Shown here piece by piece: positions 10,813 to 18,698 of a DNA stretch of 64,000 nt. Origin of the DNA: a virus (lineage: Duplodnaviria; Heunggongvirae; Uroviricota; Caudoviricetes); the IMG/VR virus record IMGVR_UViG_2802429224_000004, positions 1 to 64,000 of that record. The stretch is one strand, 5' to 3'. The position numbers were made by a program, and so were the translations under genes. How positions within the stretch are numbered: position 1 is the first letter of the stretch; the number at the start of each line of letters is the position of its first letter. The notes under the pieces are model-generated. The model was given only the letters and a program-made list of their open reading frames with translations. It did no database searches and was not told the origin of the DNA.

Positions 10813-11301
10813 GTGGCACAACGCGGTGTAAACAAAGTCATCCTGATTGGTACCCTGGGGCAAGCCCCGGAGATCAGGTATATACCAAATGGCGGAGCGG
10901 TCGGAAGACTCAGCATCGCAACGAATGAATCATGGCGCGACAAGCAAACGGGCCAACAGAAAGAGCAAACAGAATGGCATAAAGTCGTTTTGTTCGGAAA
11001 ACTTGCTGAAATTGCGAGTGAATATTTACGAAAAGGTTCTCAGGTCTACATCGAAGGGAAACTTAAAACCCGTAAGTGGACAGATGACGCCGGTGTAGAA
11101 CGTTACACGACGGAAATTATCGTCAGCCAGGGCGGCACCATGCAAATGATCGGCGCTCGCCGTGACGATTCACAGTCCTCAAATGGCTGGGGGCAATCAA
11201 ACCAACCTCAAAACCACCAGCAATACAGTGGTGGCGGTAAACCTCAGAGCAACGCCAATAACGAACCTCCAATGGACTTTGACGACGATATTCCGTTTTG
11301 A
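10813..11301 (+). CDS. ssb: single-stranded DNA-binding protein
   Basis: 162 aa, GTG start; OB-fold N-terminus highly similar to E. coli SSB, Gly/Gln-rich linker, acidic tail DFDDDIPF. Confidence 0.9.
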
Positions 11302-11498
11302 ATGTGTAAAAAACGACTGAAAGAAAAGCGGTGGTCCAGACGCCGACAAAAGTACGAACTCGCAAACAAACGCCAAAGTTGGCAATGGCACGCGCTTTTC
11401 ACGAAAAGAACACCCCGAGATATTGCTTTCGCTGGTGGGAAAACATTCCTGACCCACCTGAAGGCGCAAGACATCAGGTTTTAAGCAGAGGAAAGACT

Positions 11499-12176
11499 AT
11501 GAATAACATGACAACGAAAGAGCTTTTGACGGCACTTCCAAAATACAAAAGCCATAAAACAGTTCGCGCCTCAAAAATCAAAGATATCGAAATTATCGCC
11601 CTAATGGATGTGGTCCTTTTTTGCAACATCGAAGTCGTTGAGCCAGAAGGGGTAAAAGTCCATGTTGATAAAATGTTTTTGCAAAAACACCGACCAGAAA
11701 TTGGCGGATATCTGGTCGCTTATGAGAACGGATCTCTGTCCTATTCACCAGAAAAAACATTTGAAGAAGGCTTTAGTCGGACTAACGACTTCTTCGAAAA
11801 TGGGGTATCGCTCAGTATTGAAGGTCACAATGGGGTGACATTCATTACAGCCAGGGACGTAACTATTTCTGCTGGCGGTATCGCTACTCTACAAGAAGAA
11901 ATCGACCTTGAAGCAGCCGACTTTTCTGACGCGCTGATGTGGCTGAAGGATGGCAAGAAAGTTGCTCGACGCGGGTGGAACGGCGAAAACCAATTCTGCT
12001 GGCTGGTTCCTGAAGGACAGTACCCGGCACGAATGGAAGCCATTAAGGGATATTTCCCCGGCGACCTCGTTCCGTATGGTGCTTATTTCGCCTTAAAAAA
12101 TGCACAAGGTGTAGTTGTTCCGTGGGTTCCTTCTGTAGGCGACTTACTGGCATGTGACTGGTTTGTAGTGGAGTGA
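11499..12176 (+). CDS. DUF2829 (Tad2-like) domain protein with unknown N-terminal domain
   Basis: ATG at 11499 with gagg RBS; C-terminal ~85 aa carry the DUF2829 signature (ALMWLKDGKKVARRGWNGENQF ... VVPWVPSVGDLLACDWFVVE). Confidence 0.5.
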   Translation: MNNMTTKELLTALPKYKSHKTVRASKIKDIEIIALMDVVLFCNIEVVEPEGVKVHVDKMFLQKHRPEIGGYLVAYENGSLSYSPEKTFEEGFSRTNDFFENGVSLSIEGHNGVTFITARDVTISAGGIATLQEEIDLEAADFSDALMWLKDGKKVARRGWNGENQFCWLVPEGQYPARMEAIKGYFPGDLVPYGAYFALKNAQGVVVPWVPSVGDLLACDWFVVE

Positions 12177-12182
12177 TTTAAC

Positions 12183-12965
12183 GTGGAAAATACTAAAGCA
12201 ATTCAATACCGCCTGCGTAATGGTCAGAGTGTCGAAGTGACCATCAATAATGATGGTGTGCCTGGCGAAAAGGTTTCGATCTCTGATCTGGCTATCGAAA
12301 AAACCATCATGTGCCACCTTGGCTTTACTGAAGAAGTGAGCAAAAAGCATGGTGTAGCAATCTGGAGCGCAATGGATACTGGTATGCGCAAATTCATTAC
12401 TGCTCGTACCCCAGGGATGACCATGATGGACCTCATGCAGATTGCGCCGCTGTTTGAATGTGAGCCTTTAGATGTATTCAGCAATCCAGCTATCTGCCAG
12501 CAGTTATATGGTGAGATGAAACTCGCGGTTACCCCCATTGTGCTGCATGAAGGATCGCTTGCTGGCGTGTGGAAAGTGGAGCGTATTTCAAGCTACATGC
12601 CTTTCCATGTCAACGGCGTAATCACTGGTGAAAATCAACCTGTTTCCGTTATAAAGTCAGACCTCAAGCGCGCAATTCTTGAAGCAAGTTGTCGAGTTGT
12701 CGGCCTGGGCAAACAGTCTTATGTTTCCTTCCCGGCTGGCCCTGAAGGCCCGGCAGAAATTCTGATTATGGATGCCGATCTGCTCTGGCAAATACAGTTT
12801 CTGATTGGCAAAAGCATCATCCGCGCTGAAGAACTCGATCAGTACATTACCTGCACGATGACGGATGAAGTCAAAAGTGTGGCTATAGCCAATGCCCGGA
12901 ACCTATGTCGTGCTGCATTAACAGAACTGCAAGAAAACACCACGGAAGAAGTGGAAAGCGATTAA
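12183..12965 (+). CDS. hypothetical protein
   Basis: 260-aa ORF, GTG start 7 nt after upstream stop (operon with DUF2829 gene), followed by terminator; no motif recognised. Confidence 0.4.
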   Translation: MENTKAIQYRLRNGQSVEVTINNDGVPGEKVSISDLAIEKTIMCHLGFTEEVSKKHGVAIWSAMDTGMRKFITARTPGMTMMDLMQIAPLFECEPLDVFSNPAICQQLYGEMKLAVTPIVLHEGSLAGVWKVERISSYMPFHVNGVITGENQPVSVIKSDLKRAILEASCRVVGLGKQSYVSFPAGPEGPAEILIMDADLLWQIQFLIGKSIIRAEELDQYITCTMTDEVKSVAIANARNLCRAALTELQENTTEEVESD

Positions 12966-12996
12966 AAAAAATCCCGCCGATTGGCGGGATTTCTTC
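12964..12996. terminator. bidirectional rho-independent terminator
   Basis: A-run, hairpin atcccgccgattggcgggat, T-rich tail; between convergent operons. Confidence 0.55.
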
Positions 12997-13306
12997 AATA
13001 TACGATCTGGTCTACATGATCACCAAAATCATCGTCGTCGTCGTCCTCATCGCCACCATCTACTGCTGGCCAATCAACAAACCAGCCAGCGTAAAGATGC
13101 AGCGTTCGGAGAACATCACTTGCGGGAGCATCAAGGGTGTTAACGAATCCCATATAGCTATTGGGATTTGCCCCAGCTATGGCTTCAGCGATCATGTCCT
13201 CGGTAATGTCACCGGAGATAATGCTTAAACGCCCGGAAACTTCTTCATTATCATCAAATTCGATAATGGCATCTCCACCTAATGGCGCTGCGATTTTAAT
13301 CTGCAT
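12995..13306 (-). CDS. small highly acidic protein at distal end of Dar-type operon
   Basis: 103-aa ORF overlapping upstream stop by 11 nt; C-terminal DGGDEDDDDDDFGD run. Confidence 0.4.
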   Translation of the reverse strand: MQIKIAAPLGGDAIIEFDDNEEVSGRLSIISGDITEDMIAEAIAGANPNSYMGFVNTLDAPASDVLRTLHLYAGWFVDWPAVDGGDEDDDDDDFGDHVDQIVY

Positions 13307-14984
13307 TATTTAGCTCCTTTGCCACACCTAATAACAGTTCCAGCAATCCGTCACCATTCATCAGTGATGCGGCAGCGGCCTCTTTGTCATGATACAACTG
13401 AAGAGCCATAGAGAATACTTCCGTTGCTGACGTTTTGGAAATAGTCGGTGATTTCTGCCGAATTTTCCCGGTGTTACTTACTGAGGCTGGCGGGTATACC
13501 TTCGCCATATAAATATTACTCAATCGAGATCTGAAGCACCATTCAGGCTTGCCACGCCCACCGATATTGACGAAAGATGGCTTATCCCCTTCAACATTGG
13601 CCTTCAGGAATGACCGGGCTTTCTCTAACAAACCAGGGTTACTGTACTCAAGATGATGACCCAGCTCGTGCCACAGTGCACTTGCATTTTCATCGTTCAA
13701 ATTGACAGCAACAACACCATTAAGATTTGCATATGCCCTTCCCTGGTGGTGAACTACCTTTGATAAGGTCGATATTTTCCCGCCGGTCAGGCGATAAATA
13801 TCAGCAAGTTCCTTGCGCAGGTCTATCCCACCATTCTGTCCAGCGCGGACTTCTTCCACTTCTTCTGTGATAAAAGAGTCGGCCCACTCAAGAGCTTTTT
13901 CTTCAGATACGGATGAGTTTGCGATCGCACTGTTCATGGCAGATAACACTTTCTCGTGGACCGAACCCATACTTCGCTGATTCATTTGCCAGCGTATCTG
14001 CGGGTTATATGAGAATCGCTTAAGTAGTTGGTCAAGCTGCTCAAGTTCTTCTTCACTGACATACTTTTTAGCCTCACCAATAATGCCAGGGAGAATATTG
14101 CCGTTAGGATTAAACGCTCGCGAAAGGAAGAGTTTCAGCGCCCCCATGCCCTCCGATGCTTCAATATCACCAATAACCCGGTTAACAATGGCCGCACTCT
14201 TCGGATTAGCATCCGCCAACGCTCTGGCTACGATTTGCAGGGACGATACGACCTCACGCTGCATATCAGTCCTGATCTCATCAATAAACTCTGGCGTTAT
14301 GCCGTGCTCTTTTAGGATATCCCGGCCTTCCGCCGTTACCCCATCAATATCCCCGAGATGTTTATTAACCCGACTTTGCAATGCCTTAAATGCCTTCAGA
14401 ATTCCACGGGCATCATCCGCTTTACTAACGGCCTTCCTGAATGCTGGCAAGAAGTCTGAGTTAACCTCATTTTGTTGATCGGCCCACTGAATGGAGGCTT
14501 CTTTCATCTCGTCCAGAGTCAGATCACCCAACGCGGTATGGTCTGTGAATATGAGCGACAACCTCTGAACCATTTCTGCCAATGGTGATGCCGAATGCGC
14601 CGCGCTAAGGAATGCTTTCACCCTGGTTGGGCGAATGGAAAACCAGTCAATAGCTGGTGGCATATCTCCGTTTTTTATCGCCTGCGCTATCTCGTCAAAG
14701 CCATCGCGCCCAAGGGAGGATGCGTGATTTAACAAGCCGCGAAGTAACGAATTGCTGATACCGAATAATCGGCACCATTTTTTCACGTCGGCAACAGGCA
14801 TTCGAATAAAATGCGCAAGCACTTGTACAAGCTGTTCATCCTGGGGATCTGTACGGGAAAGCAGCCTGATCAGATGAATAATGTCTTTGATGCCGGATGC
14901 CCGATGTAATAACAAGCTGGTATATGGAGCAACACCGTTGTATCCGCTGCTGGTGGTCATAACTATCTGATCGTTTAAACTCAT
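13296..14984 (-). CDS. DdrB-like Dar operon protein with HExxH motif
   Basis: 562 aa; position after darA/ddrA-like genes; contains HELGHH (zinc-metallopeptidase-type HExxH). Confidence 0.45.
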   Translation of the reverse strand: MSLNDQIVMTTSSGYNGVAPYTSLLLHRASGIKDIIHLIRLLSRTDPQDEQLVQVLAHFIRMPVADVKKWCRLFGISNSLLRGLLNHASSLGRDGFDEIAQAIKNGDMPPAIDWFSIRPTRVKAFLSAAHSASPLAEMVQRLSLIFTDHTALGDLTLDEMKEASIQWADQQNEVNSDFLPAFRKAVSKADDARGILKAFKALQSRVNKHLGDIDGVTAEGRDILKEHGITPEFIDEIRTDMQREVVSSLQIVARALADANPKSAAIVNRVIGDIEASEGMGALKLFLSRAFNPNGNILPGIIGEAKKYVSEEELEQLDQLLKRFSYNPQIRWQMNQRSMGSVHEKVLSAMNSAIANSSVSEEKALEWADSFITEEVEEVRAGQNGGIDLRKELADIYRLTGGKISTLSKVVHHQGRAYANLNGVVAVNLNDENASALWHELGHHLEYSNPGLLEKARSFLKANVEGDKPSFVNIGGRGKPEWCFRSRLSNIYMAKVYPPASVSNTGKIRQKSPTISKTSATEVFSMALQLYHDKEAAAASLMNGDGLLELLLGVAKELNNAD

Positions 14985-14996
14985 CCCTGTTACGCC

Positions 14997-15362
14997 TTAT
15001 ACCGCCTCTTTAATATTGGCGGCTATCCATGCCGCCGTGTGCTGTTTAACCTGGTCCAGGTCGATGTATGTGCCAACATATTGACTCAAGTCCTGTAACG
15101 TACCGATAAATGCATCAGTGCTCTGATCGACGAATTTATCAGCCAGGAAATCAGCAACCAGTTTTGGCACACCATCATGTTCCGAAGGTTGTTTTTCCTC
15201 GCCACTACCACCGCCGGACGCGCCGTACCCCATCTGTTGCATGATCTGGTCAATTTCATCGCTGATATCCAGCAACTCCATGCCACTCGCGGTAGCCGCT
15301 TTGGACATCAGAGCATCCAACTTATCGCTGAGGTCCATTAACTCAATAGCTGATAGTGTCAT
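14997..15362 (-). CDS. DdrA-like small acidic protein
   Basis: 121 aa, 4-nt overlap with darA-like stop; synteny only. Confidence 0.4.
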   Translation of the reverse strand: MTLSAIELMDLSDKLDALMSKAATASGMELLDISDEIDQIMQQMGYGASGGGSGEEKQPSEHDGVPKLVADFLADKFVDQSTDAFIGTLQDLSQYVGTYIDLDQVKQHTAAWIAANIKEAV

Positions 15363-17278
15363 GCCGCTACCCCCGCTTTCTGGATTGCTACCAGCAGATC
15401 AGCCAGGTGGCGAGCTGCGCCATTAACCAGCTCTTCGTTTTCCTCAAAACGCCCGGCAGCCTGAAGGGCTGCAATCGCTTCCCGGACATTGCCCCGGGCG
15501 TTACGGATCTCCGCCATGTCAGTGCTTTGCATATCCATCACGTTATTGAGATATTCAATGGCTTTATTAGCCTCTGCATCTGCTTCGCTAACCGTTTCAT
15601 CAGGCTGTGCCGGGGCCGGTTCTGGCTGAGTAATCTCACCGACTTCGGCCTGCAATGCATTGATCATGCTCTGCACCATTTTCTCGGTGCCAGCGCCACC
15701 CGGAAACGCAATATTGGGGAAAGTTTTTTGAAACTGAGTTTTCAGCATTACGCGGAACTCGTCTGGTGAGCGGGTGGCCAGCTCCAGAGCTTTTTGTGCA
15801 TATTTGCCAAACGGACCATTAGTAAGTGTCTTCGCCAGGAAGTCGAAAGAATCCTCGCGAGGCAATAACTTCAGGTCGTACTCACTCATTTGCTGATCAG
15901 AAAGCGGGGTATCGTAAGTAGCAATGCCGTAGCGTGCATATTCATAATACGGGTCACCTTCATCAGGGCGCGGCAGAATTACTTTGTTACCTTCAGGTAT
16001 TGCGCCAGGGGCCGCCGGACGCATTTGCAGGGCATATCGATATGCACCTACAGAGACTTCTGGTTCAGGCGAAGAGCTACCGGTATCCTCCGCTGGTTCA
16101 GGTTCGACGTTTTCCGGTTTATGTTCTTCTGGTTGGACCAGGTATTCCGATACATTACCCGCTTTATAGGCTTTAAACAGCTTGCCGATCGCATCTGCCA
16201 TGTCCACACCCTGTATGGATTTAGCCTTGATCATGTACACGCTACCATCCGAATCGGTTAACTGGATATCCCCTTCGCCGTTCTCAATGAATTGCTTCAT
16301 TGATGCACCATTACTGAGCGTCACTTCCCCGTTCATATGCATACGATTTTTGATACTGGCAAGGCGATCCGTCATCGCGCGAGAGTGCCCACCAGTCATC
16401 CCCGCAGGAGCAATGGTATCGCGCCCACCAGTGCGATTGAGCTGATCAATCTCCGTCTGCAAACGCTCATTCTCTTCATAAAGAGAATCAGCTTCCGATG
16501 CAACAGCGTTAATTTTCTGCTCCAGATCTACCTTCTGCCCTTCTACCGCTGCCACCTGATCCGCGAGGTCGCTCATGGCATCCTCTTTCTGGTCACTGTC
16601 AGCCTGTAGTTGGGTTATTTCATCAACCAGGGCTTTTTTCTTCTTCTGCGCACGCTGGAATTTTGCCGAGTTTTTCTCTGCAAGGTTGGCAAGTTTCATG
16701 GTGACCTGCGCCAGCGTCATATCACGTCCACTCATCGGAGCAACGGTGTGAGTAACGTCTTTTTTATTCAGTAAGAACTGGAAAGCAACCAGCGTATCGC
16801 TATTGGTGATCCGGTTTTCCGCTGTCGGGCTATGAAACAGAATGCTGATAGTCTGACCATCACTGAGCGGAATAATGGCTGGCAGGACAGGCAGCCCGTT
16901 AACGTTACGTGCCCGGCCAATTTCAGCACCGCCGATCGCGCGCGCGCCGCTCTGGGCCACATCCCCCGTTTTATCACTCCCCGCAGAGATTCCGGTACCA
17001 TTCAGCTTCTGGTTCAATGCCCGGACAAATGCCTGCATGGTCCGGTGTAACTGCAAACGAGTAGAACTAATCGCCTCCAGTAAATCCGTAGCACACCAGT
17101 GGATCGGCGTGTCATAGAAGAACGTAGCCTCGATTTCCTCCAGGGTGTTGGATTCCGTCATCAGATAGCGGTCCTCACCGGCCATTAATGCGCGATATTC
17201 ATCATCAGTCACCGGCGGGGGAAGCACGTCAAGCCCCGGCTTAATCGTCACCCCTTTATTGATATTGAACTGTTCCAT
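15359..17278 (-). CDS. darA: DarA-like internal head antirestriction protein
   Basis: 639-aa ORF downstream of lydA/lydB/hdf-like genes on same strand; coiled-coil segments; assignment by synteny and size. Confidence 0.55.
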   Translation of the reverse strand: MEQFNINKGVTIKPGLDVLPPPVTDDEYRALMAGEDRYLMTESNTLEEIEATFFYDTPIHWCATDLLEAISSTRLQLHRTMQAFVRALNQKLNGTGISAGSDKTGDVAQSGARAIGGAEIGRARNVNGLPVLPAIIPLSDGQTISILFHSPTAENRITNSDTLVAFQFLLNKKDVTHTVAPMSGRDMTLAQVTMKLANLAEKNSAKFQRAQKKKKALVDEITQLQADSDQKEDAMSDLADQVAAVEGQKVDLEQKINAVASEADSLYEENERLQTEIDQLNRTGGRDTIAPAGMTGGHSRAMTDRLASIKNRMHMNGEVTLSNGASMKQFIENGEGDIQLTDSDGSVYMIKAKSIQGVDMADAIGKLFKAYKAGNVSEYLVQPEEHKPENVEPEPAEDTGSSSPEPEVSVGAYRYALQMRPAAPGAIPEGNKVILPRPDEGDPYYEYARYGIATYDTPLSDQQMSEYDLKLLPREDSFDFLAKTLTNGPFGKYAQKALELATRSPDEFRVMLKTQFQKTFPNIAFPGGAGTEKMVQSMINALQAEVGEITQPEPAPAQPDETVSEADAEANKAIEYLNNVMDMQSTDMAEIRNARGNVREAIAALQAAGRFEENEELVNGAARHLADLLVAIQKAGVAA

Positions 17279-17279
17279 G

Positions 17280-17891
17280 TTAATTTCCTGCTTTCAGTTG
17301 CTTAAGACGGCGTTTGAGTTCGCCATTTCGGGCCTTTTCGTTATTGAGTCGGCCTGTCTCCTTATCCAGCTTCGCCCGCAAATCAGTGATCTGCTGTTGA
17401 TTGAAAGACACCGAGTTCTGCGCTGATTTATAAGCGGCAACCACCTGAGCATTCCGCTGTTTTGCCTCTTGCAGGCGCTGAAAGTTGGATTTTACTGCCG
17501 GTTTCTTGTCTACCGGATTGGCAACACGTTTCGCTTTGGCGATCAGTGATTTCTGGAATTTTGCGGAGTTTTTGCGGGCCGCTTGCCCCATGACGGTACC
17601 AAGCGTCTTGATATCCGGCGACTGAGCGTTAGGAATAGCTTTTCCATTCAGCTTCACAGACGATATATCGCCAGTATCGTTTACCTGTATGGCAAGAATT
17701 TGTCCGTCGTTAAGAACCAGCTTTGCGGTTTTAACTTTAACGCCATCTTTCGTTGTTGCGCGGTTGCTGGAGTCAACCTCAATTACCGTAACACCGGTTT
17801 TATTGATCGCCGCGATAAGGGATTTCAGCCCCTTTTCATTAACTTGGTCAAAATCGACCGTTGCATACTTATTTTTCGTCATCTGACACAT
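17280..17891 (-). CDS. Hdf-like protein
   Basis: 203-aa ORF ending 2 nt before the darA-like start; basic coiled-coil C-terminus. Confidence 0.4.
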   Translation of the reverse strand: MCQMTKNKYATVDFDQVNEKGLKSLIAAINKTGVTVIEVDSSNRATTKDGVKVKTAKLVLNDGQILAIQVNDTGDISSVKLNGKAIPNAQSPDIKTLGTVMGQAARKNSAKFQKSLIAKAKRVANPVDKKPAVKSNFQRLQEAKQRNAQVVAAYKSAQNSVSFNQQQITDLRAKLDKETGRLNNEKARNGELKRRLKQLKAGN

Positions 17892-18312
17892 CCTGTGCGA
17901 GATTTATTACGTAACTTCTGCGGATTTGCTGAGTAACAGGGAAAATCCGATACAACGGGTTAATGAACGAGTCGCCATGCGTAACCATGACGTTGAAATG
18001 CCACAGTCGCTCTCCTTTACCCATATATTCAGTGGGTATGTACAACCATTCACTGTTTTCGCCCTGTTCAGCCGACGTCAGACAACGTTGTTCGCCTTCA
18101 ATCACTGTCGTTGGCTTCTGAACATCGCGGATCCAATATCTGACCGTTGCGCCGCGCAAAAACGGGAATTTAGATCGGTATTTGAACGGCACCCGGATGA
18201 AGCCCTGTTTAATTTCCACATCACCAAGTTCTAAATGCGTGATGTCCTTGCGTTTTAGCAAATAGCGATCGGCTAAGGCTAACGCAAGAGCGCATACACC
18301 CCAGCCAATCAT
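17869..18312 (-). CDS. lydB: LydB-like antiholin
   Basis: 147 aa, 4-nt overlap with holin-like gene upstream; synteny. Confidence 0.45.
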   Translation of the reverse strand: MIGWGVCALALALADRYLLKRKDITHLELGDVEIKQGFIRVPFKYRSKFPFLRGATVRYWIRDVQKPTTVIEGEQRCLTSAEQGENSEWLYIPTEYMGKGERLWHFNVMVTHGDSFINPLYRIFPVTQQIRRSYVINLAQDVSDDEK

Positions 18313-18638
18313 TTCCCGCCTCCCTTTTTCACCAAACTTGTAAGAACATTCAGAATGCTATCGATATTCACTCGTTTCATCCCTGAAATCACCTCATGAC
18401 CGTTATTGCTGGCTATCGTTACCATTAAGTACGTAATTGATAACTCCCAGCCCTCGTGTTGCCCCAATAGGTACGCCATCGCGCCCGCTGTCACTGCAAC
18501 AAAGATCTCCGTAACCAATCCCAACAAATTGCCAGACTGGCGTCCATCTCGGACATCCAGCAGGAACGTGCCTATCCCACCAATTACTGAAAGCAGGAGC
18601 GCAATAGCAACTGGAGTTAATCCCTGAGTGTCAAGCAC
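18309..18638 (-). CDS. lydA: LydA-like holin
   Basis: 109 aa with predicted TM helices and charged C-terminus (KKGGGK). Confidence 0.55.
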   Translation of the reverse strand: MLDTQGLTPVAIALLLSVIGGIGTFLLDVRDGRQSGNLLGLVTEIFVAVTAGAMAYLLGQHEGWELSITYLMVTIASNNGHEVISGMKRVNIDSILNVLTSLVKKGGGK

Positions 18639-18698
18639 AAGTTCCCTCCTACGTTGTCAGGAGGTAATGGTATGCAAAGTAACTTCTCATCTGGTTGT

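Follow-up and report, generated by a model that had tools for sequence, protein, structure and literature searches.

Hxr, the hyper-acidic product of the gene coupled to ddrB in P1-like phage-plasmids, as a possible partner of the DdrB peptidase

On the evidence of its sequence, the stretch of DNA analysed here (64,000 nucleotides, hereafter the window) is a P1-like phage-plasmid element, and the 3.5 kb around the gene hxr are 96-99% identical at the nucleotide level to P1, P7, SJ46, RCS47 and their relatives. The gene is the seventh and last of the operon lydA-lydB-hdf-darA-ddrA-ddrB-hxr (Table 1), whose members are separated by small gaps or overlap. The Dar proteins are known to reside inside the phage head, to be delivered into the cell along with the DNA and to work exclusively in cis (PMC12707154; PMC12810830), and the published work on this system counts six components, Hxr not being among them (PMC12810830; PMC12707154). 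By CRISPRi, hxr has been found dispensable for plaque formation on a laboratory host, as have the other Dar genes (PMC10695390), and beyond this non-essentiality no phenotype of an hxr mutant was found in the searchable literature.

Table 1. Features of hxr and of the operon that it ends, with positions in the window
Feature	Position	Strand	Basis or remarks
hxr coding sequence	12995..13306	(-)	103 aa plus stop; ortholog of P1 hxr (P1_gp021) and P7 odaA
Predicted globular core of Hxr, residues 1-80	13067..13306	(-)	AlphaFold2 model and alignment
Predicted disordered acidic tail of Hxr, residues 81-103 (AVDGGDEDDDDDDFGDHVDQIVY)	12998..13066	(-)	AlphaFold2 pLDDT and 41 tails
Asp run in the Hxr tail	13028-13060	(-)	
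Conserved C-terminal tip of Hxr	12998-13012	(-)	
Coupling junction	13296..13319	(-)	AAGGAG ribosome-binding site 13314-13319; hxr ATG 13304-13306; ddrB TAA 13296-13298
Intrinsic terminator ending the darA operon	12964..12992	(-)	GC-rich hairpin, then U8
ddrB, short form	13296..14984	(-)	562 aa; profile match positions 445-995
ddrA	14997..15362	(-)	identity to P1
darA	15359..17278	(-)	identity to P1
hdf	17280..17891	(-)	pI 10.7, net charge +21
lydB	17869-18312	(-)	with lydA, opens the operon
lydA	18309-18638	(-)	with lydB, opens the operon
Region matching the P1 late promoter LPdar	18663..18694	(-)	upstream of lydA

The gene is already catalogued and therefore not new; it is known but mislabelled. 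Hxr of P1 (P1_gp021, YP_006490.1) and OdaA of P7 have the same length as the protein of the window, MQIK...DGGDEDDDDDDFGDHVDQIVY, and their genes have the same position after ddrB and the same 11-nt overlap with it. Three substitutions and one extra Asp distinguish the protein from that of P1, which is no substantive difference, whereas the surroundings do differ from those in reference P1, in that ddrB of the window lacks the ParB-like domain and the IS1/isaB insertion is missing. Since Hxr matches PHROG 2292 over its full length (E = 3e-60), has copies in plasmids and phages (504 PLSDB plasmids and 20 phage records in a tblastn search) and has relatives that keep its length and architecture, the reading frame is a real gene. 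The opposite strand carries a 107-aa open reading frame (ORF; 12905-13228, (+)) that overlaps hxr, spans the terminator and reads the Asp codons as a run of Val, and this ORF is treated as an opposite-strand artefact.

The sequence-only reading of the window described the product as a small, hyper-acidic protein of 103 residues and proposed a calculation of its pI and charge, which agrees with that description. Hxr has 24 Asp or Glu residues against three Lys or Arg (net charge -21) and a pI of about 3.4, obtained by our own titration with no floor because the Biopython pI bottoms out at 4.05. At -0.204 charges per residue, it is the most acidic of the 97 ATG-initiated ORFs that reach 80 aa or more when all six frames of the window are read, followed by DdrA with -0.116. 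The terminal string quoted in that reading does lie within the Hxr tail, but it is not the end of the protein, which continues for another six residues (VDQIVY). Paralogy of Hxr with DdrA, also an acidic Dar protein, was considered and rejected (hhalign probability 0.05%). The net charge of -21 is mirrored by that of Hdf, encoded in the same operon, which may be a coincidence.

The coupling of hxr to the DdrB-like gene and its place at the end of a Dar-type operon, both claimed from the letters alone, were likewise confirmed. The start of hxr and the stop of ddrB overlap by 11 nt, and an AAGGAG sequence lies 7 nt upstream of the hxr ATG. Right after the hxr stop there is a terminator hairpin of -21.6 kcal/mol (z = -4.9), with none of 200 shuffled sequences folding equally well, and this element also serves the convergent isaA-like gene, transcribed in the opposite direction; the context as a whole is P1-like. 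At the other end of the operon, 30 of 32 bases are identical to P1 LPdar, with zero matches expected by chance, and the minus strand from this region to hxr showed no sigma-70-like site. We therefore take hxr to be a late gene whose product is made in step with DdrB, and it is from the annotation of P1 that we infer this late expression. Two further ideas on the region were considered and rejected. A programmed frameshift fusing DdrB to Hxr would accord with the relative frame of the two genes, which is always the same, yet inspection of the overlap revealed no slippery heptamer. An RNA element or attenuator formed by the Asp-codon run and the terminator gave only 'leader' matches of at most 26 bits, as compared to gathering scores of at least 41; these sub-threshold matches were taken for noise produced by the terminator.

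The partner gene itself has a shortened form in the window. DdrB has been described as ParB-like in its N-terminal domain and as a zincin peptidase at its C-terminus and is reportedly processed to ~76 kDa before packaging (PMC5512222), and according to the virion proteomics paper it helps DarB to be added to the capsid (PMC9024508). In the window, residues 1-12 of P1 DdrB are joined in frame to residues ~445-995. The ParB-like domain typical of DdrB (PF18763) has been deleted and gave no match, whereas the half with the HExxH metallopeptidase motif is kept, HELGH being visible in the translation. The lost stretch includes the site of the antisense ORF iddB of P1. A short ddrB also appears to be present in SJ46, where the alignment is continuous, and RCS47 is less clear; in most of the IMG/VR relatives DdrB has 995 aa. 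Its C-terminal half is not markedly basic (net charge -6), with a single block of +5 just after HExxH, and no solved relatives of this peptidase half were found.

To build the Hxr family, 1.8 billion representatives were scanned in full with HMMER, and a profile search came next. Its wider members are proteins of 95-100 aa with 29-45% identity and the same architecture, sitting on P1-like contigs of 80-96 kb, and the source names of some of these contigs are Klebsiella, Enterobacter, Citrobacter, Cronobacter and Rosenbergiella; no hxr loci came out of two scans of species-representative genomes. The association with ddrB is strict. A script scored 48 fetched loci (four Logan/NCBI and 44 IMG/VR contigs), and in all 48 the start of hxr and the stop of an ORF of 641-1311 aa, which has HExxH within its last 300 residues, share an overlap of 11, 14 or 17 nt; with one more locus, L060, the coupling holds in 49 of 49. 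Wherever the upstream genes were listed (the window, L004-L007 and L060), hxr closes the order lydA-lydB-hdf-darA-ddrA-ddrB-hxr. Hxr and a DdrB of the full-length type occur in one and the same set of 20 phage records, and phage D6 has neither. The pair stays intact in L006, where a HicB gene lies between ddrA and ddrB, and also in the window, despite the deletion of the N-terminal 433 aa of DdrB. The one candidate for an Hxr without ddrB, a lone copy on a 2.7-kb contig (L003), was rejected: the last 25 codons of ddrB precede the gene and transposase-like sequence adjoins it on the other side, which marks this copy as a relic. In L060, the pairing takes the form of P0015 (6001-6555), a protein of 184 aa in which the Hxr domain is duplicated in tandem and which overlaps the stop of a 997-aa ddrB by 17 nt, its first copy having a short acidic linker and its second a poly-Asp tail.

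Downstream of hxr, P1-like elements have a slot for variable cargo, as seen in the window (12183-12965 (+) and the hxr-ssb interval) and in L001, L004-L007, L009 and L060. It holds IS1 and isaB in P1 and a porin gene, nmpC or ompD, in P7, pSCKP83 and L060; elsewhere it is occupied by MqsA-RelE, a CHAP-domain gene or an AAA_15 and AAA_21 pair, or ssb follows directly. In four distant loci hxr ends the same operon and is followed by a different item in each, namely ssb, MqsA-RelE, the CHAP-domain gene and the AAA_15 and AAA_21 pair. The window contains no IS1. Between ssb and the isaA-like gene lies a 281-aa protein (11331-12176 (+)) with a C-terminal Tad2-like domain (Thoeris anti-defence 2, PF11195/DUF2829; E = 2.5e-22). 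Reference P1 lacks its gene, and in Ro157c2YLVW it carries the annotation DUF2829; D6, SJ46 and RCS47 also match over the initial 224 nt of the query, a stretch that covers its 3' end.

The two halves of DdrB relate to Hxr in different ways. Pairwise identities of the Hxr core correlate with those of the C-terminal 300 aa of DdrB at r = 0.99 over all pairs and 0.63 over the distant pairs, as opposed to 0.55 and 0.24, respectively, for the N-terminal 400 aa; the mean identity of DdrB itself is 71% in its N-terminal part and 40% in its C-terminal part. This pattern of identities fits a co-evolution of Hxr with the peptidase half of DdrB, but plain linkage of adjacent DNA in mosaic genomes may produce the same pattern.

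The structure of Hxr was predicted by AlphaFold2 with an alignment of 25 sequences. The model has a mean pLDDT of 76, with values of 83-90 for the greater part of residues 1-80, ~71 in residues 21-30 and below 50 for residues 88-103 in the tail. The predicted core is a beta-rich alpha/beta arrangement in which three strands are followed by two helices and a short strand. Residues G53, V65, L66, R67, W75, W79 and P80 are invariant among the aligned members, R67 being the sole basic residue conserved in all of them, and the net charge ranges from -11 to -22 in all 25. After the invariant W-x-[VI]-x-W-P every member has a tail of 20-26 residues. When 41 distinct tails were pooled, they contained 43.6% Asp and Glu, no Lys or Arg at all and 28% Gly, Pro, Ser, Thr, Asn and Gln. 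Their sequence varies, and what is conserved is this composition together with a C-terminus of the form hydrophobic-V-[N/Y/H]: Asp is found at position -5 in 27 of the 41 tails, Ile at -3 in 22 and Val or Ile at -2 in 39, and the last residue is Asn, Tyr or His in every one. Even among near-identical P1-like elements (loci L030-L059) the length of the Asp run varies from four to nine residues, which is consistent with slippage in a run of GAC/GAT codons; Tandem Repeats Finder called no tandem DNA repeat in this run. The model and the alignment thus suggest three parts, namely a small alpha/beta core of ~75-80 aa that would be an orphan fold, since searches detected no structural relative of it, a polyanionic, disordered linker of 15-20 aa and the C-terminal tip. 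An unconserved sequence with conserved composition and tip and an Asp run of variable length suggest a charged tether that is flexible and bears a docking tip rather than a rigid surface copying DNA. Indeed, the structure prediction proposed in the sequence-only reading did not bring out the likeness to a rigid DNA mimic, as about half of the negative charge of Hxr is located in the disordered tail.

How, then, should this protein be understood? Homologues of Hxr do carry an annotation at variance with the mimic role suggested earlier, since the P1 record describes hxr as 'possible repressor; homolog of Xre', but that annotation fails when tested. The idea of an Xre-type helix-turn-helix (HTH) transcriptional repressor, a label copied across P1-like genomes, goes back solely to that entry, which is based on 28% identity to an Xre phage repressor over ~58 residues. 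Neither HTH_3 (PF01381) nor any other HTH family in Pfam was matched at E up to 10 by any of the 25 members, and for Hxr of the window itself Pfam gave no family at E up to 1; NCBIfam gave no match, and a profile search of all PDB sequences gave none at E up to 10. In place of an all-helical bundle of five helices, the model opens with three strands and contains no more than two helices, and it resembles no HTH protein. A pI of 3.4 and a net charge of -21, with R67 as the one conserved basic residue, are ill-suited to a DNA-binding surface, and the last gene of a late structural and anti-restriction operon is hardly the place of a repressor. With no HTH profile match and a beta-rich predicted core, the label is unsupported, and the repressor function can be considered effectively refuted. 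A free, trans-acting mimic of nucleic acids, inhibiting a DNA-binding defence or repair enzyme of the host, is another alternative. Candidate targets would be type I restriction-modification (R-M), BREX PglX, RecBCD or a nucleoid protein, and such a function might resemble that of Ocr, ArdA, Gam or T7 gp5.9, with an unrelated fold. T7 Ocr and plasmid ArdA are, like Hxr, small, very acidic proteins encoded by mobile elements in an anti-restriction context, and their overall charge density is comparable to that of Hxr. The charge of -0.20 per residue and the pI of ~3.4, the most acidic in the window and within the range for DNA mimics, agree with this idea, as do the conservation of acidity across the family, the location of hxr in an anti-restriction operon adjoining a Tad2-like anti-defence gene and its non-essentiality on a laboratory host that is poor in defences. 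However, Ocr and ArdA form rigid dimers that are largely helical, imitate B-DNA with their surface carboxylates and act early and in trans, and Hxr differs from them in having a beta-rich core and a disordered, variable tail, in being encoded by a late gene and in being locked to ddrB. Profile, PDB and structure searches detected no homology to Ocr or to ArdA (PF07275) in either sequence or fold, no PDB or viral fold matched the Hxr model significantly, and no solved DNA-mimic, immunity-protein or anti-CRISPR fold was matched. Of the traits of Ocr, Hxr shares the high, conserved density of negative charge but apparently not the early expression, ocr being an early gene. Furthermore, the Dar proteins are reported to act in cis only (PMC12707154), and a titrating mimic of the Ocr type would therefore not explain Dar protection. 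The Ocr/ArdA idea of the sequence-only reading thus does not hold as family membership and survives, weakly, as a mechanism. We consider a free Ocr-like mimic unlikely, and less likely than a partnership with DdrB, and leave open a looser role as an acidic, nucleic-acid-like decoy.

The same reading had named a packaged head protein as its other option, and Hxr might indeed be a seventh Dar component of the virion, serving as an acidic counter-ion or scaffold for the basic Hdf and DNA and either leaving the head together with the ejected DNA or being pushed out of it as DNA comes in. The hdf-to-ddrB block and ulx-darB have six other products, every one of them an internal head protein, and the charges of Hdf (+21) and Hxr (-21) are opposite. 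On the other hand, Hxr is not among the 27 proteins detected in CsCl-purified P1 virions, where at least two unique tryptic peptides were required (PMC9024508). Its tryptic peptides comprise one favourable peptide of 22 aa, a 4-mer and two acidic peptides that, at 36 and 41 aa, are very long; given this cutoff and the single suitable peptide, the non-detection is weak evidence, which leaves some room for packaging. A polyanion next to packed DNA would be electrostatically unfavourable, however, and no signal for capsid targeting or processing was identified in Hxr. Taken with its counter-ion or scaffold variant, packaging appears to us quite improbable. What is left beside these alternatives and the partnership with DdrB falls to something else.

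Among the possibilities considered, the one that we favour, with a probability of roughly 0.45, is that Hxr is a late, stoichiometric acidic partner of the peptidase half of DdrB, whose tail masks a surface in the manner of a chaperone or inhibitor, or else serves as a decoy. Hxr would be made together with DdrB through translational coupling, and its core would dock on the C-terminal half of DdrB, which bears the metallopeptidase. The tethered acidic tail could then occupy a basic surface on DdrB or on a neighbouring Dar protein, be it a nucleic-acid-binding or an active-site one, and in the producing cell this surface would stay masked or inactive up to the loading of the Dar proteins into proheads. 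Physical binding of Hxr to DdrB, the masking or inhibitory role and the time of action are, in this proposal, steps that we infer. Against it stand the net charge of -6 of the C-terminal half of DdrB and the place of Hxr outside both the published Dar six and the reported virion proteins. A bolder version would make Hxr an unrecognised seventh Dar component of an undescribed fold, a trans-encoded, tethered polyanionic 'plug' that controls the peptidase of DdrB or its DNA-binding surface and thereby the ordered loading of DarB into heads. Here docking would fall to the C-terminal tip, and the poly-Asp segment would be nucleic-acid-like or would block the zinc site. We find this version rather doubtful, but if it were true, its label as a repressor would have hidden a Dar component from fifty years of genetics.

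Several known systems offer partial parallels to the partnership with DdrB. Single-stranded DNA-binding protein (SSB) also combines a globular core, a flexible acidic segment and a short, conserved hydrophobic C-terminal tip. The SSBs of E. coli and P1 end in DDDIPF, and the SSB tail is a tethered ligand that serves both partner proteins and the DNA-binding surface of SSB itself; the ssb gene of the window (10813-11301) encodes a protein ending in ...DFDDDIPF. The likeness would be architectural only, as Hxr has no OB fold and no homology to SSB and its tip reads hydrophobic-V-[N/Y/H] instead of IPF. The order of an enzyme gene followed by a gene for a small acidic protein, with tight coupling and co-divergence with the enzyme domain, recalls the colicin DNase-Im and barnase-barstar pairs. 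Similarly, by analogy with the aspartate-switch propeptides of zinc metallopeptidases, a carboxylate-rich segment of Hxr could plausibly block a zinc site. No similarity of Hxr to inhibitor or immunity proteins or to aspartate-switch propeptides was found in fold or sequence, and the parallel with peptidase inhibition may be taken as an analogy drawn from general knowledge.

An arrangement of similar appearance occurs in the Vibrio phages VAP7, D506, 207E48.1 and K469, where an ORF of 87-90 aa (L010 4699-4971; L011 4567-4830; L012 4699-4962; L014 3546-3809) follows a large protein with a 4-nt overlap or a 3-nt gap. The C-terminus of these large proteins aligns with residues 341-539 of DdrB, that is, with a DdrB-like metallopeptidase, and the small ORFs are Hxr-like in position and size, yet neither acidic nor acidic-tailed. 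The copy in VAP7 is mis-annotated as 'tetraspanin-15', and Xanthomonas phage Rb1 lacks such a small ORF. Compared with the Hxr model, VAP7 gp181 gave a weak fold match that is not significant (TM 0.41-0.45, E = 1.9). As homologues of Hxr the Vibrio ORFs were rejected, with an hhalign probability of 0.5% both with four sequences and with the seven members reached when the family was enlarged by protein search. As these ORFs are non-acidic and not detectably homologous to Hxr, a general rule of a peptidase plus an acidic partner is not established, and the resemblance is probably a positional analogy only.

What is new here is the invariant ddrB-hxr module, the wider Hxr family, the predicted orphan fold and a tail whose acidity and tip are conserved. 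Current models of how the Dar proteins of P1 protect DNA from type I R-M and BREX count six proteins; hundreds of P1-like phage-plasmids carry a conserved seventh gene, coupled to ddrB, under the misleading label of a putative repressor. Many of these elements are described in the literature as carrying resistance genes such as mcr-1. Correcting the label takes a false regulatory gene out of the annotations of P1. Should a deletion of hxr have no effect, Hxr would be a small accessory protein and the finding an ordinary one. If, on the other hand, the acidic tail is a decoy for a DNA-binding or protease site, Hxr would add a new fold and a 'tethered-tail' design to the acidic anti-defence proteins.
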